From sequence record PV991107.1: DNA of 39,336 bases. One strand, 5' to 3'. The notes under the pieces were generated by a model. That model did no database searches. It had not been told where the DNA came from and was given only the letters and a program-made list of their open reading frames with translations. This DNA is from a phage. Positions 11,350-39,336 of the stretch are shown one piece after another; the stretch's first letter is position 1; each line of letters opens with the position of its first letter. Position numbers and translations under genes: made by a program.

Positions 11350-13881
11350 ATGTCCACGATTACACAATTCCCTTCAGGAAACACTCAGTACAGGATTGAG
11401 TTCGACTACCTAGCCAGAACGTTTGTTGTTGTTACGCTGGTGAATAGCTCTAACCCTACCCTGAACCGTGTACTGGAAGTTGGTCGAGATTACCGATTCC
11501 TTAACCCAACGATGATTGAGATGTTGGTGGACCAATCAGGTTTCGACATCGTTCGTATTCACCGTCAGACTGGAACTGACTTAGTGGTAGACTTCAGGAA
11601 TGGCTCAGTGTTGACAGCTAGTGACCTGACCAATTCAGAGCTTCAGGCTATCCATATTGCAGAAGAAGGTCGAGACCAAACGGTTGACTTAGCGAAGGAA
11701 TATGCCGATGCTGCTGGTAGCTCTGCTGGCAACGCTAAGGATAGCGAGGACGAAGCACGCCGAATCGCTGAGAGTATCAGGGAAGCTGGTCTAATTGGCT
11801 ATATTACCCGTCGCTCCTTCGAGAAAGGCTACAACGTTACAACATGGAGCGAGGTCCTGCTATGGGAAGAGGATGGTGATTATTACCGCTGGGATGGTAC
11901 GCTTCCAAAGAACGTTCCTGCTGGTTCAACTCCTGAAACTTCCGGTGGGATTGGTTTAGGTGCGTGGGTTAGTGTTGGTGATGCTGCTTTAAGAAGTCAG
12001 ATTTCAAACCCGGAAGGGGCAATACTCTACCCGGAATTGCAGATGGCAAGATGGCGTGATGAGGGTGATGTTCGAGGCTGGGGTGCTAAAGGGGATGGTG
12101 TAACAGATAGTACGGAGAATATAGCTGCTTCACTAAATTCTCAAAAAGCTGTCGTAGCATCAGAAGGTGTATTCTCTAGTTCTGGTATTAATAGTAATTA
12201 CTGTAACTTAGACGGTAGAGGCAGTGGTGTACTAAGTCACCGTTCAAGTACAGGTAACTACTTAGTATTTAACAATCTACGCTCAGGTCGCTTAAGTAAT
12301 ATTACGGTAGAAAGTAATAAGGCGACCGATACCGCTCAAGGGCAGCAGGTATCTCTTGCTGGTGGCAGTGATGTTACTATAAGTGATGTTAATTTCTCAA
12401 ACGTTAAGGGCGCTGGTTTCAGTTTAATCACATACCCTAATGATGCACCCTCTGATGGGCTTATGATTAAAGGCATTCGAGGTAGCTACTCCGGCTATGC
12501 TACTAATAAGGCGGCTGGATGCATACTTGCTGATTCCTCAGTTAACTCCCTCATAAATAACGTCATTGCTAAGAACTACCCTCAGTTCGGGGCTGTAGAA
12601 CTGAAAGGTACAGCCAGTTATAACATAGTCAGCAATGTCATAGGGGCAGACTGCCAGCATGTAACTTACAACGGTACAGAAGGGTCAATAGCTCCCTCTA
12701 ACAACCTTATCAATGGGGTAGTGGCTAATAATCCTAAATATGCAGCGGTTGTTGCAGGCAAAGGTAGTACCAACTTAATCTCCGATGTGCTTGTAGATTT
12801 CTCAACCTCTGATGCTAGGCAGGCTCATGGTGTTACAGTAGAAGGTTCTGATAACGTCATAAATAATGTGCTTATGTCAGGGTGTGATGGTACTAACTCT
12901 TTAGGGCAAGCTCAAACTGCTACAATTGCACGCTTTATAGATACAGCTAATAACAACTATGCGTCTGTATTTCCTAGCTACAGTGCTACAGGTGTTATTA
13001 CTTTCGAATCAGGTTCTACCCGTAACTTCGTAGAGGTAAAGCATCCGGGAAGGAGAAACGACCTTCTCAGTGCTACTGGTACTATTGAAGGTACAGTTAC
13101 TATTGACGGCACTAGTAATAGCAACGTAGTGCACGCTCCTGCATTAGGACAGTACATAGGCAGTATGTCCGGTAGGTTCGAATGGCGGATTAAGTCCATG
13201 TCACTTCCATCAGGGGTTCTTACCTCTGCGGATAAGTACAGGATGCTTGCCGATGGGGCTGTGTCATTAGCTGTAGGTGGAGGTACTTCTTCTCAAGTGC
13301 GCCTGTTCACTTCTGACGGCACTTATCGGAATATATCACTTACTGGAGGTAACGTGCGTCTTCCTACCAGTAGCACAGGTTATTTGCAGTTAGGTTCTAA
13401 TGCAATGACCCCAGATAGTACTAATACATACGCATTAGGTTCCGTAAGTCGAGCATGGTCTGGCGGTTTTACTCAATCAGCATTCACTGTTGTCTCAGAT
13501 GCTAGGGATAAAACAGAGCCTCTTAATATCTCAGATGCTTTACTGGATGCTTGGTCTGAAGTTGACTTTGTGCAGTTTCAGTACTTGGACCGAATTGAGG
13601 AGAAGGGTGCAGACTCAGCTAGATGGCACTTCGGCATCATCGCTCAGCGAGCTAAGGAGGCCTTCGAACGTCACGGTATAGATGCACATCGCTATGGCTT
13701 CCTGTGCTTCGACAGTTGGGATGATGTATACGAGGAAGATGCCAATGGCTCTCGTAAACTGATTACACCAGCAGGTTCCCGCTACGGTATTCGTTACGAG
13801 GAAGTACTGATATTAGAGGCTGCGTTGATGCGGCGTACTATTAAGCGTATGCAGGAAGCATTAGCTGTTATGTCTAAGTGA
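11350..13881 (+). CDS. Tail fibre / tailspike (T7 gene 17 N-terminal adaptor domain + beta-helix-like central domain + C-terminal intramolecular chaperone-like domain)
   Basis: 843-aa ORF; N-terminal ~150 aa resemble T7 gp17 (..FDYLAR.FVVVTL..DYRF..); central region rich in short N/S/G/V repeats typical of parallel beta-helix enzymes; C-terminal block SDARDK...GIIAQRAKEAFERHG...GIRYEE resembles Peptidase S74 autoproteolytic chaperone domains. Confidence 0.85.
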   Translation: MSTITQFPSGNTQYRIEFDYLARTFVVVTLVNSSNPTLNRVLEVGRDYRFLNPTMIEMLVDQSGFDIVRIHRQTGTDLVVDFRNGSVLTASDLTNSELQAIHIAEEGRDQTVDLAKEYADAAGSSAGNAKDSEDEARRIAESIREAGLIGYITRRSFEKGYNVTTWSEVLLWEEDGDYYRWDGTLPKNVPAGSTPETSGGIGLGAWVSVGDAALRSQISNPEGAILYPELQMARWRDEGDVRGWGAKGDGVTDSTENIAASLNSQKAVVASEGVFSSSGINSNYCNLDGRGSGVLSHRSSTGNYLVFNNLRSGRLSNITVESNKATDTAQGQQVSLAGGSDVTISDVNFSNVKGAGFSLITYPNDAPSDGLMIKGIRGSYSGYATNKAAGCILADSSVNSLINNVIAKNYPQFGAVELKGTASYNIVSNVIGADCQHVTYNGTEGSIAPSNNLINGVVANNPKYAAVVAGKGSTNLISDVLVDFSTSDARQAHGVTVEGSDNVINNVLMSGCDGTNSLGQAQTATIARFIDTANNNYASVFPSYSATGVITFESGSTRNFVEVKHPGRRNDLLSATGTIEGTVTIDGTSNSNVVHAPALGQYIGSMSGRFEWRIKSMSLPSGVLTSADKYRMLADGAVSLAVGGGTSSQVRLFTSDGTYRNISLTGGNVRLPTSSTGYLQLGSNAMTPDSTNTYALGSVSRAWSGGFTQSAFTVVSDARDKTEPLNISDALLDAWSEVDFVQFQYLDRIEEKGADSARWHFGIIAQRAKEAFERHGIDAHRYGFLCFDSWDDVYEEDANGSRKLITPAGSRYGIRYEEVLILEAALMRRTIKRMQEALAVMSK

Positions 13882-13985
13882 GTAATACTGGTACGATATT
13901 TTCGCACAATGAAATCGTTGAACACGCTAACCAACGTATGTAACAACTTTGGGTCACGGACGACCTGCTTTAAACTGGAGGTTTT

Positions 13986-14541: not shown

Positions 14542-14988
14542 ATGCTCGAATTTTTAAAGAGAGCGGCTCCGTGGTTACTTGCAGCAGTGATGTTTGCTGG
14601 TGGCTACCACACCGCTAACAATAAGTGGGAGGCTAAGGTCAATGCAGAATACACCTCGAATCTTAAGGCATCGGAAGATACAAGGCTTGCTGTCCAAGCT
14701 GAAGTCAACAAAGTGTCCAAACGGTTTCAGGACGAAATGTCCTCGTTGGAAGGCAGCACTGATAGGATTATTGCTGACCTTCAGTCTGACAATAAGCGGC
14801 TGCGCATCCGAGTCAAGACAACGAGTGGAACCACGCAAAGTGACGGTCGATGCATCATTGATGGTTACGCCGAACTTGACGAACGAGATGCTAAACGTCT
14901 TATCGCCATCGGAGTGAAAGGAGACAAATGGATTAAGGCACTTCAGGACACTGTGAGAGCCTTACAGCAAGAGAAGGAGACCAAATGA
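14542..14988 (+). CDS. Rz-like i-spanin (T7 gene 18.5 homolog)
   Basis: 148 aa, N-terminal TM (WLLAAVMFAGG), coiled-coil rest; SD GGGAGGG upstream; position after small terminase. Confidence 0.8.
   Translation: MLEFLKRAAPWLLAAVMFAGGYHTANNKWEAKVNAEYTSNLKASEDTRLAVQAEVNKVSKRFQDEMSSLEGSTDRIIADLQSDNKRLRIRVKTTSGTTQSDGRCIIDGYAELDERDAKRLIAIGVKGDKWIKALQDTVRALQQEKETK
14642..14917 (+). CDS. Rz1-like o-spanin lipoprotein embedded in +1 frame of Rz (T7 gene 18.7 homolog)
   Basis: Within ORF-track frame 14594-14917; ..RWKAALIGLLLTFSLTISGCASES.. contains a lipobox (ISGC) and resembles T7 Rz1 as recalled; first in-frame ATG taken as start (uncertain). Confidence 0.65.
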   Translation: MQNTPRILRHRKIQGLLSKLKSTKCPNGFRTKCPRWKAALIGLLLTFSLTISGCASESRQRVEPRKVTVDASLMVTPNLTNEMLNVLSPSE

Positions 14989-15146
14989 TGTGGAAGACTA
15001 CCTACCTATTCTTGGACGGCTCTGAGATGCTTGGGTGGCGTTATACAAGCATTGAGTCTGCCTACATGGTGGCTGCTGAGGCCCTGACTTCCGGTAAGAA
15101 CCCGACGATGATTGGGTTTAAGGTAACTAAGGAGGTGACGCATTGA
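14985..15146 (+). CDS. Small hypothetical protein (53 aa) between Rz and large terminase
   Basis: ATG overlapping Rz stop, SD GAAGGAG upstream, stop overlaps terminase TTG start; no counterpart at this position in T7. Confidence 0.35.
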
Positions 15147-16906
15147 GTAAAGACTTAGTGGCGCGTCAGGCGCTAATGACTTCCCGCATGAAGGCAGACT
15201 TCGTGTTCTTCCTGTTCGTCCTGTGGAAAGCTCTGTCACTCCCAGTCCCGACTCGCTGTCAGATTGACATGGCAAAGAAACTATCGGCTGGGGACAACAG
15301 GCGCTTCATCTTACAGGCGTTCCGTGGTATCGGGAAGTCCTTCATTACGTGTGCCTTCGTGGTCTGGAAGCTCTGGAACAACCCGGACTTGAAGTTCATG
15401 ATTGTGTCGGCCTCAAAGGAACGAGCCGATGCTAACTCCATCTTCATCAAGCGAATAATCGACCTCATGCCTCAGCTTAAGGAACTCAAACATAAGCAGG
15501 GGCAGCGAGATGCGGTTATCAGCTTCGACGTTGGACCAGCCAAGCCAGACCACTCACCTTCGGTTAAGTCCGTTGGTATCACTGGTCAGTTGACTGGTAG
15601 TCGTGCTGACATCCTGATTGCCGATGACGTGGAGGTTCCGAACAACTCAGCGACTCAGTCTGCACGAGACCGTCTGTCAGAGCTTGTGAAAGAGTTCGAC
15701 GCTATCCTGAAGCCGGGAGGTACAATCATCTATCTGGGTACTCCTCAGAACGAGATGACCCTGTACCGTGAGTTGGAAGGTCGTGGGTACACCACTACCA
15801 TCTGGCCTGCTCGTTATCCACGCGACAGGAAGGACTGGCAGTCTTACGGTGACCGTCTGGCACCGATGCTTCAGGCAGAGCTGGAAGAGGACCCTGAGTC
15901 CTTCTACTGGCGTCCGACCGATGAAGTACGATTCGATGATACGGACCTGAAGGAACGTGAGCTGTCCTATGGTAAAGCTGGCTTCGCGCTACAGTTCATG
16001 CTTAACCCTAACCTGAGTGATGCAGAGAAGTACCCTCTGAAGCTCCGTGACCTTATCGTAGCAGACTTGGACCCAGCGTCTAGCCCAATGGTATACCAAT
16101 GGCTTCCTAACCCTCAGAACAAGCGTGAGGACGTTCCTAACGTTGGACTCATAGGTGACTCATACCACACGTATCAGACTGTAGGTTCTGCCTTCAGTTC
16201 GTACACCCAGAAGATTCTAGTCATTGACCCTAGTGGTCGTGGTAAGGATGAAACTGGTTATGCGGTACTGTACCAGCTAAACGGCTACATCTTCGCTATG
16301 GAAGTTGGCGGTATGCGAGGTGGCTATGAAGACTCTACGCTGGAAGCCTTGGCTAAGATTGGTCGTAAGTGGAAGGTCAACGAATACGTCATTGAGGGTA
16401 ACTTCGGTGATGGTATGTACCTTGAGCTATTCAAGCCTGTAGCTTCCCGTATTCATCCTGCTGCTGTAACTGAAGTGAAGAGTAAGGGTCAGAAGGAACT
16501 CCGCATCTGTGACGTTCTGGAGCCTATCATGGGGTCTCACCGACTTATCGTTAACGCTGCTGCTATCGTCCAAGATTACCAGTCTGCCTCTGATAAGGAT
16601 GGTGTTCGTAATCCTATCTACTCTCTCTTCTACCAGATGACACGTATCTCTCGTGAACGTGGAGCATTGGCACACGATGACCGACTTGATGCGCTGGCTA
16701 TCGGTGTACAGTTCTTCGTTGAGTCTATGGCGAAGGATGCCAACAAAGGCGAACGTGAAGTCACTGAGGAGTGGCTGGAGGAACAGATGGAGAACCCACG
16801 GAAAGGCTTCGAGTCCATCCACACTGAGTTCTGGGACAATGGGGTCCGGGTAACTCACGATACGGACGACGAGCTGGGGCTAGGGTCCTACGTTACGTTC
16901 CACTAG
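15143..16906 (+). CDS. Terminase large subunit / DNA maturase B (T7 gene 19 homolog), TTG start
   Basis: 587 aa (T7 gp19 586 aa); strong similarity throughout (..[46 protein letters not shown].. , ..[20 protein letters not shown]..); TTG preceded by AAGGAGG at 7-nt spacing. Confidence 0.95.
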
Positions 16907-17000
16907 CTGAATGAATAACTATAGGCGAAAACTGAATTAATAAGCAGTTAGTAACCTATAGTTACTACCAGTCTAACCTACTGTTTTACAAGGAGTTTAG

Positions 17001-17023
17001 ACTTAACTATCACTATAGGGAAG
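17001..17023 (+). promoter_or_regulatory. Phage RNAP promoter near right genome end (phiOR-like)
   Basis: ACTTAACTATCACTATAGGGAAG; consensus match -13 to +4. Confidence 0.75.
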
Positions 17024-17203
17024 ACCCCCGGTTACTTATAGTATTACCGTAGTGAATATACATATGCAGACTTTATGCAAGACCTTAGGAGGCAGACTCC
17101 GAGTTCTTACCTAAGGCTTGCACCGATGGAAGGAGGGTGATATTAATCATAATCCCTCCAATACAGATAGTCACCGACCATAGATACAGGAGGTATGTAG
17201 CAT

Positions 17204-17362
17204 ATGGCAAAGACCAAAGCTGTACTTAAAGCTCTGGCGACCAATCGAGCTACATACAGGTTTCTTGCTGCTGTTCTACTTGCTGCTGGCGTTACTGCTG
17301 GAAGTAAGTGGGTCGGGTGGGTCGAGACTCTCGTATGTTCTCTGGTGTCTCAGTGTAATTAA
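17204..17362 (+). CDS. Small hydrophobic protein (gene 19.5-like position)
   Basis: 52-aa ORF MAKTKAVLKALATNRATYRFLAAVLLAAGVTAG.. with ACAGGAGG upstream; position matches T7 gene 19.5; coordinates hand-placed. Confidence 0.4.
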   Translation: MAKTKAVLKALATNRATYRFLAAVLLAAGVTAGSKWVGWVETLVCSLVSQCN

Positions 17363-17395
17363 CGCAATCATGGTAACGATTCATGAGCGGAAGAC

Positions 17396-17436
17396 CTAAG
17401 GTCAGTTCATAGCTGACGCTACTCTACTGACCTTAG
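17396..17436 (+). other. Perfect 11-bp inverted repeat (CTAAGGTCAGT ... ACTGACCTTAG) with 19-nt loop
   Basis: Read directly; lies just downstream of the gene 19.5-like ORF near the right genome end. Confidence 0.6.
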
Positions 17437-17518
17437 CTACTGTAGTCAAGGACTTTAGGTAACACCTTAATAGAAGCTCACTTAGGGTCATCCTACTTAT
17501 TGGTCTATCCTAGTGTCG

Positions 17519-17564
17519 CCTGACCTACGGTCCTTGACCTACAGTAGCTGCCACCTACGGTCAC
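17519..17564 (+). repeat. Short-repeat array (CCTACGGT/CCTACAGT-type) on the right-end side of the terminal repeat
   Basis: CCTGACCTACGGTCCTTGACCTACAGTAGCTGCCACCTACGGTCAC. Confidence 0.6.
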
Positions 17565-17598
17565 TCGATGAGTTTTGGACCAAAAGTTTGAGACCACA

Positions 17599-17812
17599 TC
17601 TCACAGTTCAAGAACCTCAAGTCTCCCCCATAGGCCCTCTTTCAGTCAGACCAAAGGCCCTACCCGTTGCTGCTCCTTGCAGTCACAGCCAGTCTATCAT
17701 AAGGTTAGACCGATGGTCAAGACGTTAGGTCAACGATAGGTCTAGGCTATGGCTTAGGGAAGGACGATAGGTAGTGACTATGGGTCTGTCTCTGAGTCTC
17801 TATCTGTATAAC
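17599..17812 (+). repeat. Candidate direct terminal repeat (single collapsed copy) containing the genome left end
   Basis: Starts TCTCACAGT...CCCCCATAGG and ends ..GTCTGTCTCTGAGTCTCTATCTGTATAACC, paralleling the first and last bases of the T7 160-bp terminal repeat as I recall them; flanked on both sides by short-repeat arrays as in T7. Confidence 0.45.
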
Positions 17813-17975
17813 CATAGGTCCTACAACCTACAGTCCTACAACCATAGGTCCTACACCTACAGTCCTACAACCTACAGTCCTACAACCTACAGTAACAACC
17901 ATAAGACACTCACATCCTACAGTCATAGACCTACAGTTAATAGACACAAAGCTATAGACTTAAGGTCACAGACAT
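17813..17975 (+). repeat. Array of about 10-12 degenerate 8-15 bp tandem repeats (CCTACAGT / CCATAGGT / CTTAAGGT)
   Basis: CATAGGTCCTACAAC CTACAGTCCTACAAC CATAGGTCCTACAC CTACAGTCCTACAAC CTACAGTCCTACAAC CTACAGTAACAAC ...; analogous to the CCTAAAG arrays next to the T7 terminal repeat. Confidence 0.8.
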
Positions 17976-18050
17976 GTTAGTCAAAGACTATATCCTATTA
18001 CTCACCATGGGGCCGACGATAGCTTAATCAATATTATTTAAGATTACCTA

Positions 18051-18079
18051 TTGACTACAGGTCCAGACTATGGCTTAAT
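18051..18079 (+). promoter_or_regulatory. Candidate host sigma70 early promoter (A1-like)
   Basis: TTGACT - 17 nt - CTTAAT; same architecture and relative position as T7 A1 (TTGACT-17-GATACT). Confidence 0.35.
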
Positions 18080-18191
18080 AGCTTCCGTCAACACGACACG
18101 GCAACAACCGGATAGTGAAGACGCCGGGTCATCCCGGTTAAGTAGACAGCCTGATAAGTCATACGAACAACAGGCAGATGACAGAAAGTAG

Positions 18192-18221
18192 TTGACAAGA
18201 TGTACCGACTTAAAGTAGTAT
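18192..18221 (+). promoter_or_regulatory. Candidate host sigma70 early promoter (A2/A3-like)
   Basis: TTGACA - 18 nt - TAGTAT about 200 nt upstream of the first early gene. Confidence 0.4.
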
Positions 18222-18425
18222 GTACCACATCAACACGAAACAACGGTGACGACCAACACTGAAACGGTCTACCTGAAGTCCTCTGACTGAAGGGAATGCT
18301 CTTTAACAATCTGGATAAACTCTTAATGTGCGCCGACAGTGGTTAACTACAGGGTCTTTGAGTCTACATCTGAAGGCCCTGACTGATAGTCACTAACATA
18401 CAATTAACTTTGAGAGGATATAACT

Positions 18426-18929
18426 ATGGAACGTAATGCTAATGCATACTATGAGCTGCTGGCTGCAACCGTTGAGGCATTTATCGAGCGTATTCAGTAC
18501 GACCACCTGACTCAAGATGATGACTACAGCGATGCGCTGCATGAAGTCGTAGACGGTCAAGTTCCGCACTATTACCACGAGATTTTCACGGTGATGGCTG
18601 CTGATGGCATAGACCACGAGTTCGAAGACTCTGGGCTGATGCCTGAAACCAAGGACGTAACGCGTATCCTACAAGCTCGCATCTATGAGGCGCTTTATAA
18701 CGATGTGTCTAATAGCTTGGATGTAGTCTGGTTTGAGGATGAAGAGGCAGACGAAGAGGATGAATATTGGGTAGTTGACGCTAAAACAGGCGAGATAATT
18801 GTGCAAGCTGTAGCTCTTGAGGTCGCTACTGCATGTGCCGAGGTCAACTATGCGGCAGGCCGCCACCTGAAGGTGGAAGACATCAATGATAACGTAGTGT
18901 TCGACCCTGCGGCTGAGGACTGCGAGTGA
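18426..18929 (+). CDS. ocr: Ocr-like DNA-mimic anti-restriction protein (T7 gene 0.3 homolog) with about 50-aa C-terminal extension
   Basis: ..[46 protein letters not shown].. matches the core of T7 Ocr as recalled; very acidic; 167 aa versus 117 aa in T7; SD GAGAGGA. Confidence 0.8.
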
Positions 18930-19929: not shown

Positions 19930-19952
19930 ACTTAACTATCACTATAGGACTC
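19930..19952 (+). promoter_or_regulatory. Phage RNAP promoter immediately upstream of the RNAP gene
   Basis: ACTTAACTATCACTATAGGACTC, same variant as the site at 17001; +1 about 19947, 75 nt upstream of the gene 1 ATG. Confidence 0.7.
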
Positions 19953-20021: not shown

Positions 20022-22703
20022 ATGAGCGTCATCTCTATTGACAAACACGACTTCTCTGATGTGTCGAACGCCATTGAGCCGTTTAACCTGCTGGCTGACC
20101 ACTACGGGCAAGACCTTGCAGTCAAACAGCTTCAGCTTGAGCATGAGGCATATACAGAAGGCGAGCGACGTTTCATCAAGAACCTTGAGCGCCAGACCGA
20201 GCGCGGGGAACTGGCAGACAATCAGGTCGCCAAGCCTTTGATGCAGACTCTGGTGCCTGAGATTGCGCAAGCAGTCAAGGAGTGGCACGAAGGCCAAGAC
20301 GGGAAGCTGTCAACCTCTCGTCCTAGCGTAGCGTTCACCATGTTGAGCACTGAAGAGAAGGCCGTAAAGGACCGCTCTCTGCGCATCTCCTGTGAGTCTG
20401 CTGCGGTTATCATACTGAAGGTCATTCTCTCCAAGCTGGTCAAGCCTGAAGGGATACCGATTACACCGATGGCCTCCGCGATAGGTCGCACACTTGAGGA
20501 CGAAATCCGCTTCGGTCGCATCCGTGACAAAGAGAAAGAGCACTTCAAGAAGGCGATAGCTGATAACCTGAATAAGCGGGCCGGGGCGTCATACAAGAAA
20601 GCCTACATGCAAGCGGTCGAGGCGTCCATGCTGGAGCAAGGCCAACTGGAAGATGCGTGGGGGACTTGGAGTCCTACAGAGGCTGTCCACGTTGGCATCA
20701 AGATGCTCGAGATTGTCATCCAGTCAACACAACTGGTCGAGCTTAAGCGGTACGGTGCTGGTAATGCAGCGGCTGACGTAGAGATGGTCCACCTGTCAGA
20801 CTTCTGGGTCAAGAAGATGGCACAACGAGGATTCAGCCTTGCGGGTATCGCTCCAGTCTACCAGCCTTGCGTCGTTCCACCTAAGCCGTGGACTGGTGTC
20901 GTAGGTGGTGGGTACTGGGCCAAAGGTCGCAGACCGTTACCATTGATTCGCTTAGGGTCTAAGTCTGCGGTAGCACGTTATGAAGACGTATACATGCCTG
21001 AAGTCTATGACGCTGTGAACATCATTCAGAATACACCTTGGAAAGTTAACAAGAAGGTTCTGGACGTGGTGAACATGGTCGAGAAGCTGAACAACACGCC
21101 TATTGATGACATCCCTCAGATGGAGCCACTGAAGCCTGAGGACTATGCGGGTGAGACTGAAGAAGAACTCAAGGCATGGAAGAAGGCTGCTGCTGGTATC
21201 TATCGCCGCGAGAAGGCCAGACAGTCACGCAGATTATCACTGAGCTTTATCGTTAACCAAGCAAACAAGTTCTCTCAGTTCAAGGCCATCTGGTTCCCGT
21301 ACAACATGGATTGGCGAGGTCGTGTCTACGCTGTCCCGATGTTCAACCCTCAGGGTAACGACATGCAGAAGGGTCTACTGACTCTGGCGGTCGGAAAGCC
21401 TATCGGGGCGGATGGTTTCAAATGGCTTAAAGTCCACGGTGCAAACTGTGCGGGTGTCGATAAAGTCACCTTCGAGGAGCGCATCAAGTGGGTGGAAGAC
21501 AACCACGAAAACATCATGGCTGCTGCTAAGGCACCGATGGATAGTATTGAGTGGTGGGGCAAGTTAGACTCTCCGTTCTGTTTCCTCGCGTTCTGCTTCG
21601 AGTATGCTGGCGTAATGCACCACGGCCTGTCTTACTCCTGCTCGCTGCCGATAGCGTTCGATGGGTCCTGCTCTGGTATTCAGCACTTCAGTGCGATGCT
21701 TCGTGACCACATCGGTGGACATGCAGTAAACCTGACGCCATCCGGTAAGGTACAAGACATCTACCGCATTGTGTCTGACCGCATTGAGGAGGCGCTTAAA
21801 GTCCTGCTGGTTAACGGTACGGACAACGAGATGGTGACTCACGAGGACAAGAAAACTGGTGAGATTACCGAACGTCTCAAGCTGGGGACACGAGAGCTGG
21901 CCCGTCAGTGGCTGCAATTCGGTATGTCTCGCTCGGTCACTAAGCGTTCGGTCATGACTCTGGCCTACGGGTCGAAAGAGTATGGGTTCGCCGACCAAGT
22001 GTTCGAAGACACCGTGATGCCAGCGATTGACTCCGGTAAGGGAGCAATGTTCACCGAGCCAAGCCAAGCGTCTCGCTTCATGGCTAAGATGATTTGGGAA
22101 GCTGTGAGTGTGACAGTAGTTGCTGCGGTTGACGCGATGAAGTGGCTTCAAGGTGCCGCTAAGCTGCTGGCTGCTGAAGTGAAGGACAAGAAGACTGGTG
22201 AAATCCTGAAGCCATGCCTTCCGGTACACTGGGTCACACCTGATGGGTTCCCGGTCTGGCAGGAATACCGCAAGAAGGATACCACTCGTCTGAACCTGAT
22301 GTTCTTAGGGTCCTTCAACCTTCAACCTACGGTCAACAAAGGTACGAAGAAAGAGCTGGACAAGCACAAGCAGGAGTCAGGCATTAGCCCGAACTTCGTC
22401 CACTCACAAGATGGTAGCCACCTCCGCAAGACTGTAGTCCACACTCACCGAAAGTATGGCGTGATGTCATTCGCAGTGATTCACGATAGCTTCGGGACCA
22501 TCCCGGCTGACGCTGAGTATCTGTTCCGTGGCGTCCGTGAGACGATGGTAGAGACTTACCGCGATAACGATGTGCTGCTTGACTTCTACGAGCAGTTTGA
22601 ATACCAGCTTCATGAAAGTCAGCGCGACAAGTTGCCTGAGCTTCCGAAGAAAGGTAAACTGAATATCGAAGACATCTTGTCTTCAGACTTTGCATTCGCT
22701 TAA
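20022..22703 (+). CDS. Single-subunit DNA-directed RNA polymerase (T7 gene 1 homolog)
   Basis: 893 aa (T7 RNAP 883 aa); extensive similarity including C-terminal ..HDSFGTIPADA..VRETMV.TY..DFYEQF..QLHESQ.DK.P.LP.KG.LN..DIL.SDFAFA. Confidence 0.97.
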   Translation: MSVISIDKHDFSDVSNAIEPFNLLADHYGQDLAVKQLQLEHEAYTEGERRFIKNLERQTERGELADNQVAKPLMQTLVPEIAQAVKEWHEGQDGKLSTSRPSVAFTMLSTEEKAVKDRSLRISCESAAVIILKVILSKLVKPEGIPITPMASAIGRTLEDEIRFGRIRDKEKEHFKKAIADNLNKRAGASYKKAYMQAVEASMLEQGQLEDAWGTWSPTEAVHVGIKMLEIVIQSTQLVELKRYGAGNAAADVEMVHLSDFWVKKMAQRGFSLAGIAPVYQPCVVPPKPWTGVVGGGYWAKGRRPLPLIRLGSKSAVARYEDVYMPEVYDAVNIIQNTPWKVNKKVLDVVNMVEKLNNTPIDDIPQMEPLKPEDYAGETEEELKAWKKAAAGIYRREKARQSRRLSLSFIVNQANKFSQFKAIWFPYNMDWRGRVYAVPMFNPQGNDMQKGLLTLAVGKPIGADGFKWLKVHGANCAGVDKVTFEERIKWVEDNHENIMAAAKAPMDSIEWWGKLDSPFCFLAFCFEYAGVMHHGLSYSCSLPIAFDGSCSGIQHFSAMLRDHIGGHAVNLTPSGKVQDIYRIVSDRIEEALKVLLVNGTDNEMVTHEDKKTGEITERLKLGTRELARQWLQFGMSRSVTKRSVMTLAYGSKEYGFADQVFEDTVMPAIDSGKGAMFTEPSQASRFMAKMIWEAVSVTVVAAVDAMKWLQGAAKLLAAEVKDKKTGEILKPCLPVHWVTPDGFPVWQEYRKKDTTRLNLMFLGSFNLQPTVNKGTKKELDKHKQESGISPNFVHSQDGSHLRKTVVHTHRKYGVMSFAVIHDSFGTIPADAEYLFRGVRETMVETYRDNDVLLDFYEQFEYQLHESQRDKLPELPKKGKLNIEDILSSDFAFA

Positions 22704-30771: not shown

Positions 30772-32943
30772 ATGTTTGACCTTAAGAGTATCTGGGGTTC
30801 TGACATAGAGACCAACGGTCTCCTTGATACAGTCTCCCAGTTTCACTGTGGGGTCCTGATTAACGCCGAGTCGAATGAGACCCTTAAGTATGGGGTAGCT
30901 CCGATGGTCGGTATCGTCGGTGGCTTCAAAGAGTATGTACAGAAGGTGGAAGAGATTGCCGCATCACCTGATGGTATGCTGGTATTCCACAACGGTATCA
31001 ACTATGACGTCCCGGCTATTGACAAGCTAAAGCGTCTGTACTTTGGGAAACGCTTTAACTTCCCGAAACACAAGATGATTGATACCTTGGTGCTGGGCCG
31101 CTTGATGTATCCCAACATTAAGTTCTCAGACATGGGAGCAGTGAAAGCTGGTCGTCTGCCACCTAAGATGATGGGACGCCAGTCTCTTGAGGCTTGGGGC
31201 TATCGTCTCGGTGAGATGAAAGGTGAGTACAAACACGATTACGTTGCCAAGTGCAAGGCTGAAGGTATCGAATATAAGGCTGGGGACGAATGGTTGTTCC
31301 CGTCTCAGGAGATGCTGGACTATAACGTTCAAGACGTTGTGGTCACACTGGCGTTGTTCAAGAAGTTCCTGACTGACAAGTATTACTTCCAGTCTGAACA
31401 GTTTGCTTTCGACCAGATTTATGCGTTGCGTCTGGAACATGATGCTGCGTGGATCTGTGCGAAGATGGAGCGTAACGGCTATCCGATGAACACCGAGATG
31501 GTCGAAGGCTTATATCGTGAACTCACCGTCAAACGTGCAGAGTTGTTGGACAAGCTGCGTTCGACTTTCGGTAGCTGGTATGCACCAAAGGGAGGCAAGG
31601 AGTTCTTCAAGCACCCACGGACAGGCAAGGACCTTCCGAAGTATCCGCGAGTCGTGTATCCTAAGGTCGGGTCAGTATTCAAGAAGCCGAAGAACAAAGC
31701 TCAACGCTTAGGTCTGGAGCCTTGCGAGTTCGACTCACGAGACACGATGGAAGGAGCACCGTTCACGCCAATCACTTACGTTGAGTTTAATCCGGGAAGC
31801 GGAGACCACTTAGCGAAAGTCTTGATGGAGCGTGGTTGGGAGCCTGTGGACTTCACTGACACTGGGAAACCTGTAGTCGATGACGAGACGTTAGAACACG
31901 TTAAGCTACCAGACGCAGAGGCTCAGGCTTGCGTAGAGCTGGTCCGTGAGTATCTGGTAGTCCAGAAGCGCATCGGTCAGGCGGCTGAAGGTAAGAACGC
32001 ATGGTTGAAACTTGTAGGTCCAGACGGACGTATGCATGGTTCAATCAACCCATGCGGGGCAGTAACCGGACGTGCGACTCATAGTTCACCAAACATGGCT
32101 CAGGTCCCTGCTAACGGTGCTCCGTATGGTGAGATTTGCCGTGGTGCTTTCGGTGCAGCTTGGAACAAGACGGATGGTAAGCCAGACCCTTGGATTCAAG
32201 TGGGTGTGGATGCTTCAGGTCTTGAGCTTCGTTGTCTGGGGAACCGAGCAGCTCCGTTTGATGGTGGTGCCTATGCGAAGACTGTGGTCGAAGGTGACAT
32301 CCACTGGGCCAACGCAGTAAACGCTGGTTTAGCACCTAATGTCCCACGAGATAAGTTGAACCACGACCATGATGCTTTCCGTAACAACGCTAAGACGTTC
32401 ATCTATGCGTTCCTGTATGGTGCAGGGGCCGCTAAGATTGGACTAATAGTCGGCGGTGGCAAGAAGGAAGGTTCAGCTCTCATGAAGAAATTCATTGAGG
32501 GCACACCAGCCATCAAGGACCTCAGGGAAGCTGTGAGTAATACGTTAATCTCAGACTCTAAGTGGGTGGACGGAGAGAACATCGTTAAGTGGAAACGCCG
32601 TTGGTTGCGTGGACTTGATGGTCGCCGTATCCACATCCGGTCTCCACACTCAGCACTAAACGCATTACTTCAAGGCGACGGTGCGGTAGTCTGTAAGCAC
32701 TGGATTGTCGAGACTGAACGTATGCTTGAAGAGGCAGGGTATGTTCACGGCTGGGAAGGAGACTTTGCGTACATGGCATGGGTTCACGACGAATTGCAGA
32801 TTGCGTGCCGTACTCAGGAGATTGCCGAAGAAGTCGTCAAGATCGCTCAACTTGCTATGCGTAAGGTGGGTGAGTTCTATAACTTTAAATGTGTCCTTGA
32901 TACCGAAGGTAAGATTGGACCAACGTGGAAGGAGTGTCACTAA
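30772..32943 (+). CDS. DNA polymerase (T7 gene 5 homolog)
   Basis: ORF-track frame 30736-32943 trimmed to ATG after GGAGG; MFDLKSIWGSDIETNGL.., ..VFHNG..YDVPA.., ..LEAWGYRLGEMKGEYK.., ..KTFIY.FLYGAG.., ..YMAWVHDE.Q.. match T7 DNAP. Confidence 0.97.
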   Translation: MFDLKSIWGSDIETNGLLDTVSQFHCGVLINAESNETLKYGVAPMVGIVGGFKEYVQKVEEIAASPDGMLVFHNGINYDVPAIDKLKRLYFGKRFNFPKHKMIDTLVLGRLMYPNIKFSDMGAVKAGRLPPKMMGRQSLEAWGYRLGEMKGEYKHDYVAKCKAEGIEYKAGDEWLFPSQEMLDYNVQDVVVTLALFKKFLTDKYYFQSEQFAFDQIYALRLEHDAAWICAKMERNGYPMNTEMVEGLYRELTVKRAELLDKLRSTFGSWYAPKGGKEFFKHPRTGKDLPKYPRVVYPKVGSVFKKPKNKAQRLGLEPCEFDSRDTMEGAPFTPITYVEFNPGSGDHLAKVLMERGWEPVDFTDTGKPVVDDETLEHVKLPDAEAQACVELVREYLVVQKRIGQAAEGKNAWLKLVGPDGRMHGSINPCGAVTGRATHSSPNMAQVPANGAPYGEICRGAFGAAWNKTDGKPDPWIQVGVDASGLELRCLGNRAAPFDGGAYAKTVVEGDIHWANAVNAGLAPNVPRDKLNHDHDAFRNNAKTFIYAFLYGAGAAKIGLIVGGGKKEGSALMKKFIEGTPAIKDLREAVSNTLISDSKWVDGENIVKWKRRWLRGLDGRRIHIRSPHSALNALLQGDGAVVCKHWIVETERMLEEAGYVHGWEGDFAYMAWVHDELQIACRTQEIAEEVVKIAQLAMRKVGEFYNFKCVLDTEGKIGPTWKECH

Positions 32944-38970: not shown

Positions 38971-39336
38971 ATGGCAAACGTTCCGGGTCAGAAATTAGGT
39001 ACAGACCAAGGTAAAGGCAAATCTGGTTCCGACGCTCTGGCGTTGTTCCTGAAGGTCTTTGCTGGCGAAGTCCTGACCGCATTCACTCGCCGCTCTGTAA
39101 CTGCTGACAAGCATATTGTCCGTACAATTCAGAACGGTAAGTCTGCTCAGTTCCCGGTCATGGGTCGCACCTCTGGTGTGTATCTGGCTCCGGGTGAGCG
39201 ACTGTCCGATAAGCGTAAAGGTATCAAACATACCGAGAAAGTAATTACCATTGATGGTCTGCTGACTGCCGATGTGATGATTTTCGACATTGAAGACGCG
39301 ATGAACCACTATGACGTGGCTGGTGAGTATTCCAAC
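38971..39336 (+). CDS. Major capsid protein (gene 10A), N-terminal 122 codons, truncated by window end
   Basis: AGGAG - 9 nt - ATG; ..LALFLKVFAGEVLTAF.R.SVT...H.VR.I..GKSAQFPV.GRT...YLAPGE.L.DKRK.IKHTEKVITIDGLLTADV.I.DIEDAMNHYDV..EY.. nearly identical in pattern to T7 gp10A N-terminus. Confidence 0.95.
   Translation, partial: MANVPGQKLGTDQGKGKSGSDALALFLKVFAGEVLTAFTRRSVTADKHIVRTIQNGKSAQFPVMGRTSGVYLAPGERLSDKRKGIKHTEKVITIDGLLTADVMIFDIEDAMNHYDVAGEYSN

Follow-up and report, generated by a model that had tools for sequence, protein, structure and literature searches.

The terminal repeat of a nearly complete Kayfunavirus genome, predicted from a single copy at the concatemer junction

Cleavage of phage DNA concatemers needs duplication of the terminal repeat, for which strand-displacement and hairpin models have been proposed (PMC4281155), and a passage in PMC13236587 that cites Chung and Hinkle 1990 states that a T7 origin together with the pac site and the terminal repeat suffices for the packaging of a plasmid. 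The left end of T3 has been placed at TCTCATAGTTCAAGAACCCA from high-throughput reads (PMC3896407). For the K1F-like phages SH3, SH4, and SH5, run-off sequencing of phage DNA gave repeats of 183-190 bp (PMC4925675), and the same paper cites 179 bp for the K1F repeat.

Our comparison is based on relatives with ends that are annotated, run-off-sequenced, or called by PhageTerm, or with the repeat at both record ends (K1F, EcoDS1, SH3, SH4, Penshu1, Mt1B1_P3, and Milel), and repeat lengths were computed directly from the ends of linear records. Computed from the records, the repeat is 178 bp long in K1F, 179 bp in EPr2, 184 bp in SH3, 191 bp in SH4, and 160 bp in T7. Mt1B1_P3 and Milel each carry a repeat of 202 bp at both record ends, EcoDS1 has an annotated 'terminal repeat' of 178 bp (1-178), and the Penshu1 repeat of 179 bp is given as 'predicted by PhageTerm'. 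The DNA studied here, which we call the window, is the whole stretch PV991107.1 (39,336 nt, one strand), and all positions are window coordinates unless a record is named.

Identity of the contig and the break in gene 10

The best database matches to the window are Kayfunavirus records. A 25-kb query from the window matches IME177 over 97% of its length with 96.2% identity, and K1F is colinear with the window but permuted, with 75-97% identity per BLAST block. As judged from this genome-wide similarity and colinearity, which speak for membership in the genus, the window is a nearly complete genome of a Kayfunavirus (K1F-like, Studiervirinae), a coliphage of the T7 family.

Differences from K1F were also seen away from the locus of interest. 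At 32786-32788 in gene 5 (DNA polymerase), the window is without about 600 bp of K1F (K1F 14936-15534), where K1F has its gene 5 split and carries an ORF for an HNH endonuclease, and the window has the uninterrupted allele. Gene 17, which encodes the tail fibre or spike (11350-13881, 843 aa), matches K1F in its N-terminal part only; 12108-13922 has no match to the K1F endosialidase region, and Pfam identifies a T7 tail-fibre N-terminus, Tail_spike_N, and a C-terminal Peptidase_S74 chaperone domain. The lack of a match to K1F beyond the N-terminal part and this set of domains suggest a receptor specificity different from that of K1F.

Window base 1 corresponds to about position 21552 of K1F, inside capsid gene 10, and base 39336 to K1F 21501, and in comparison with K1F, gene 10, which encodes the major capsid protein, lacks 50 nt between the window ends. 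The missing stretch amounts to seventeen codons, QLGEALAIAADGAVLAE, less one base, and joining position 39336 directly to position 1 shifts and breaks the capsid reading frame. The window had been taken in an earlier note for a circularly permuted genome. It is permuted relative to virion DNA, and the contig runs across the point at which the two virion ends come together, but its own ends fail to join. Because these 50 nt are absent between the ends, the window is not a closed circle, and we regard it as a broken or trimmed contig instead of a closed permuted genome. Since the loss affects an otherwise intact capsid gene, the break looks like one that arose during assembly or extraction.

One copy of the terminal repeat and its boundaries

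In BLAST comparisons with K1F, window 17390-17800 matches K1F 39317-39704, the last 388 bases of that record, and the alignment halts at the record end, while window 17599-18400 matches K1F 1-771, starting from the first base of the record. The two alignments overlap over window 17599-17800, and as they lie at opposite record ends, the stretch they share is the terminal repeat, present once; indeed, 17599-17801 is found in the window as a single copy only. This finding is in line with the proposal of the earlier note that the physical ends lie inside the window with the repeat collapsed to one copy. Positions 17389-17945 very probably represent the concatemer-junction form of the genome, in which right-end unique sequence is followed by one copy of a 203-bp terminal repeat and then by left-end unique sequence (Table 1). 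The repeat is expected at both ends of the virion DNA, where the left copy would start at 17599 and the right copy would stop at 17801, with an uncertainty of approximately -1 to +4 nt.

Table 1. Features at and around the predicted junction in the window
Feature	Position	Strand	Evidence
Gene 19, terminase large subunit, 587 aa	15143..16906	+	Pfam Terminase-T7_RNaseH-like, E=5e-38; PHROG 38, E=9e-130
Phage RNA-polymerase promoter, phiOR counterpart, reading rightward to the junction	17003..17025	+	0 mismatches to the window's own consensus
Gene 19.5, 52 aa, last gene of the virion map	17204..17362	+	PHROG 2193, E=2e-24; gp19.5 in EcoDS1 and PE3-1
Conserved inverted repeat, perfect 11-bp stem, 19-nt loop	17396..17436	+	Marks where the conserved junction block starts on the left
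Left short-repeat group, three ACCTACRGT copies	17523..17562	+	Conserved among relatives; counterpart of T7 repeats left of the right-end repeat
Invariant 33-nt block CGATGAGTTTTGGACCAAAAGTTTGAGACCACA adjoining the left cut site	17566..17598	+	Identical in 10/10 aligned genomes
Terminal repeat, 203 bp, one copy	17599..17801	+	Orthologous to terminal repeats of relatives
24-nt insertion in the repeat, absent from K1F and EcoDS1	17665..17688 (about)	+	Alignment
Junction motif CTATCTGT, straddling the right cut site	17800..17807	+	'Concatemeric junction' annotation in EcoDS1 and PE3-1
Right short-repeat array, CCTACAGT x6 and CCATARG x3, periods 14-15 and 30 nt	17810..17945	+	Corresponds to the CCTAAAG array that T7 has beside its left-end repeat
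Host sigma-70 early promoter, A1-like (TTGACT, 17 nt, CTTAAT)	18051..18087	+	34/37 positions equal to EcoDS1 'host RNAP promoter' 469-505
Host sigma-70 early promoter, A2/A3-like (TTGACA, 18 nt, TAGTAT)	18192..18227	+	Homology to EcoDS1 annotation
Gene 0.3, anti-restriction protein resembling ocr; the virion map begins with this gene	18426..18929	+	Pfam ocr, E=5e-30; PHROG 2568, E=5e-54

The left boundary is formed on the + strand by TCTCACAGT, which runs on as ...CCCCCATAGG, and since the K1F record begins at the same base, the left end previously proposed near 17599 proves to be exact. At the right boundary, ...GAGTCTCT reaches 17801 directly before ATCTGTAT, and GTCTCTATCTGTATAACC is read at 17796-17813. 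The 9-mer TCTCACAGT is not significant alone (3 matches in the window versus 0.74 expected), and the significance of the boundary comes from its extended homology to known termini. The repeats of the relatives start with TCTCACAGT / TCTCACAGTTCAAGAACCTCAAG in every case and, except in SH3, end with GAGTCTCT (or GAGTCCCT or GAGTCCAT) directly before ATCTGTAT. Over aligned positions, the window repeat is 86-97% identical to those of K1F, EcoDS1, Penshu1, EPr2, SH3, Mt1B1_P3, and Milel, and 71% and 54% identical to those of SH4 and T7, respectively. Conservation is highest at the two ends of the repeat, and both boundaries are homologous to termini determined experimentally or computationally in K1F, EcoDS1, Penshu1, SH4, Mt1B1_P3, and Milel.

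The earlier note had extended the repeat from 17599 to about 17812, giving 210-214 bp with ATCTGTATAACC included. While the direct terminal repeat itself is supported by the ends of the relatives and the right end does lie in this region, the limit at 17812 overshoots by 11 nt, as ATCTGTATAACC follows the repeat and had been counted as part of it; with the right end at 17801, the repeat is 203 bp long. The right cut does vary among records: K1F stops 1 nt earlier, and the SH3 record, which derives from run-off sequencing, ends 4 nt further right, after ATCT, so the cut may differ between members of the group. However, the records of K1F, EcoDS1, Mt1B1_P3, Milel, and SH4 stop at or 1 nt before ...TCTCT, and in them ATCTGTAT follows the left copy but not the right one; PhageTerm puts the end of the Penshu1 repeat at this same place, and EPr2 shares this right end, though its sequence is scrambled beyond the left copy. 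The registration in T7 is equal as well, with CCCT before the cut and ATCTGTT after it. We thus consider the longer repeat very unlikely and retain the 203-bp repeat.

The length of 203 bp is due to the 24-nt internal insertion (Table 1), which is common to the subgroup of the window, Mt1B1_P3, Milel, HC12, and phiYIO1-1 only; HC12 and phiYIO1-1 match the window repeat over 201-204 nt from position 1 of their records. This yields two length classes, one of 201-204 bp with the insertion and one of 178-180 bp without it. The insertion occupies an indel hotspot between GGCCCTACC and CCAGTC, where nothing is inserted in K1F and EcoDS1, and the insertion in SH4 is a different and longer one. An exact search of IMG/VR for the window-specific insertion gave no match, and a conserved junction 44-mer is present in 14 viral contigs of IMG/VR.

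Several related public records are mis-started or carry assembly artefacts at the junction. In the record of the Providencia phage EPr2 (OM256482.1), the 179-bp repeat is annotated four times, and the first copy is followed by part of the unique sequence of the right end, beginning within gene 19.5. In the record of ZG49 (NC_047777.1), the first base lies 491 nt ahead of the true left end, and the record ends overlap by 401 bp, a stretch that begins upstream of gene 19.5 and differs from the terminal repeat. The two records appear to be misassembled around the junction, and we rejected them as guides to the ends.

An alternative interpretation would be that the region is an intergenic, repeat-rich regulatory spacer and that the genome has its ends at other places or, through headful packaging, has permuted ends, with the break in gene 10 as a possible hint at an end. 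The window does end in gene 10 without joining, and cutting is not provable from sequence alone, but the terminase is of the T7 type, the sequences around the cut sites do not differ from those in phages whose ends have been determined, and the break in gene 10 removes 50 nt of an otherwise intact gene. No Studiervirinae phage is known to end inside gene 10, and we consider this alternative extremely unlikely. We give practically no credence to small proteins encoded by this stretch, with the repeats as coding repeats, as the three ORFs that exist there (17513-17728, 17575-17739, and 17774-17980), at places where automatic annotation gives 'hypothetical proteins' in several relatives, have no Pfam or PHROG match, any reading frame is broken among close relatives by 1-nt indels within the repeat (C4/C5 run, AGT-CAG, GTCT-TCT) and by arbitrary array indels, and the homologous region of T7 has no annotated gene. 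For lack of family matches to the crossing ORFs and on account of these one-base indels, the region is taken to be non-coding. The stretch flagged in the earlier note is an ordinary, known element in a new isolate, with orthologs annotated in close relatives; it has been understood in outline since the work on T7, and nothing about it is new in biology.

Sequences surrounding the junction

The terminal repeat lies between the last genes of the map (19/19.5) and the early region with host promoters and gene 0.3, and the order of gene 19, phiOR, gene 19.5, junction, host promoters, and ocr is that of T7. The gene 19 terminase, which is of the T7 type and 96% identical to the K1F gene, is expected to be the enzyme that cuts at the junction. 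The rightward phiOR counterpart upstream of the junction is one of 9 sites in the window within 3 mismatches of the promoter consensus TTAACTATCACTATAGGGA (0.01 expected), all on the + strand, and phiOR is annotated at the same relative place in EcoDS1. A phiOL-type phage promoter was not found between the repeat and gene 0.3, where T7 differs, and the next phage promoter lies at 19932. As a generic sigma-70 scan was uninformative by count (4 found versus 2.9 expected), the host promoters were placed by homology to the EcoDS1 annotation. A terminator scan found no site, and an Rfam scan of 16900-18500 with E up to 1 identified no RNA family.

The left end with TCTCACAGT at 17599 is matched by a right end that is followed by an ATCTGT motif, part of CTATCTGT (Table 1). 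The feature annotated in EcoDS1 as a 'concatemeric junction' is this same CTATCTGT, at positions 177-184 of that record, and ATCTGTAT is invariant in every relative aligned across the site; in Penshu1 and SH4, too, it comes directly after the repeat. The junction copy is the only + strand copy of the motif in the window. Judged by its sequence and position, CTATCTGT is the counterpart of the phage RNA polymerase pause signal ATCTGTT of T7. The exact T7 heptamer is absent from the junction, with four copies elsewhere in the window at chance level; the local motif is ATCTGTA (17802), a difference that we count against our interpretation of the region. An inverted copy of the motif, TATCTGTAT, is located on the minus strand at 17161-17169, between phiOR and gene 19.5, and could be due to chance, since about 0.3 copies are expected.

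Short repeats on one strand flank the terminal repeat on both sides, just as the earlier note had described by analogy with T7, and the corresponding T7 arrays were confirmed in the T7 sequence. In the window, CCTACRGT occurs 18 times versus 2.4 expected, a number that 0/100 shuffles reached. Nine of the 15 + strand copies are concentrated in 17524-17937 (at 17524, 17538, and 17554, and six at 17827-17930), and the minus strand of this interval has none. The right array, for which Tandem Repeats Finder reports a 15-nt period at 17818-17893 with the unit GTCCTACAACCTACA, 5.1 copies, and a score of 122, is, together with its longer-period descriptions, the strongest tandem repeat in the window, as all repeats outside it score <=53. 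The copy number, unit sequence, and order of the CCTACAGT/CCATAGG array vary even between close relatives.

The blocks that flank both cut sites are invariant among the relatives aligned. The 33-nt block at the left cut site, which is partly similar to the T7 sequence at the equivalent place, is a candidate for the recognition sequence of the terminase. It contains a 13-nt palindrome, TTTTGGACCAAAA, at 17573-17585. A structure at the left cut site or at this palindrome is not claimed, as the fold of 17560-17610 is no better than that of shuffles (z = -0.4).

Further to the left, 163-203 nt from the terminal repeat, lies the conserved inverted repeat with the arms CTAAGGTCAGT / ACTGACCTTAG, at which homology to K1F and SH4 begins. 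Its DNA fold has an energy of -11.2 kcal/mol (z = -2.9), and its arms are invariant in 10 Kayfunavirus genomes, with two alleles of the loop. In T7, a hairpin intermediate has been mapped near an inverted repeat left of the terminal repeat. The Kayfunavirus inverted repeat may be related to the hairpin intermediate proposed for the processing of T7 concatemers. We can go one step further and speculate that the 15-nt array binds proteins and controls DNA entry or packaging, while a hairpin with the invariant stem primes the duplication of the repeat, although we consider this combination rather unlikely. If it were true, the classes of ~179 and ~203 bp might mark packaging-specificity groups within Kayfunavirus.

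Proposed packaging scheme and comparison with T7 and T3

Our results lead us to propose a packaging scheme that is taken from T7 and T3 and inferred for this phage. After replication of the linear DNA, the single-stranded repeat tails would anneal and form head-to-tail concatemers in which each junction holds a single repeat. At a late stage of infection, the phage RNA polymerase would transcribe rightward from phiOR (17003) and pause at ATCTGTA (17802), at the right edge of the repeat, where the paused polymerase and lysozyme would recruit the complex of the gp18/gp19 terminase and the prohead. The terminase would cut at 17598/17599 and at about 17801/17802, and the repeat would be duplicated by nicking and DNA synthesis, so that a copy is present at both ends of each virion DNA, which would run from 17599 to position 17801 of the following unit. 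The end at 17599 would be the first to enter on infection, and early transcription toward ocr would begin at the host promoters (18051 and 18192). As for the contig, the assembler, or the sequencing of concatemers, would have merged the two copies into one, and the window consequently reads straight through with a single copy.

On a practical level, the contig can be re-oriented to the virion map, with its start at 17599, its end at 17801, and the repeat added. The predicted length of the virion DNA is ~39,539 bp (39,336 + 203), plus the ~50 nt missing from gene 10.

Among the Kayfunavirus relatives, the first bases of the repeat (TCTCACAGTTCAAGAACCTCAAG), its last bases (GAGTCTCT), the gene neighborhood, and the invariant flanks, ...GAGACCACA on the left and ATCTGTAT on the right, are the same as in the window. 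The window repeat is distinguished from theirs by a few point differences and 1-nt indels, and the right array of the window has its own unit order and copy number. The T3 repeat (230 bp, right end ...TGTGTCCCT) belongs to a phage of a different genus and, in a comparison of the ends only, is of the same type as that of the window; the T3 left end matches the window at 17/20 positions.

The parallels to the first and last bases of the T7 repeat that the earlier note had drawn were confirmed in the T7 sequence. The first 9 nt of the repeat are identical in T7 and the window, and at the right end TCTCTGTGTCCCT followed by ATCTGTT in T7 and TCTCTGAGTCTCT followed by ATCTGTA in the window share the same registration (TCTCTG.GTC.CT/ATCTGT, the slash marking the cut). 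Both genomes have motif repeats of 7-8 nt on one strand to the left and right of the terminal repeat and a few inside it, and both have phiOR and genes 19 and 19.5 on the left and the host promoters and ocr on the right. The two differ in the overall sequence of the repeat and in its length, the window repeat being 43 bp longer, in the short-repeat unit (CCTACAGT or CCATAGG every 14-15 nt in the window, CCTAAAG every 13 nt in T7), and in the last base of the pause motif, while the boundaries of the repeat and the order of its neighbors are those of T7.
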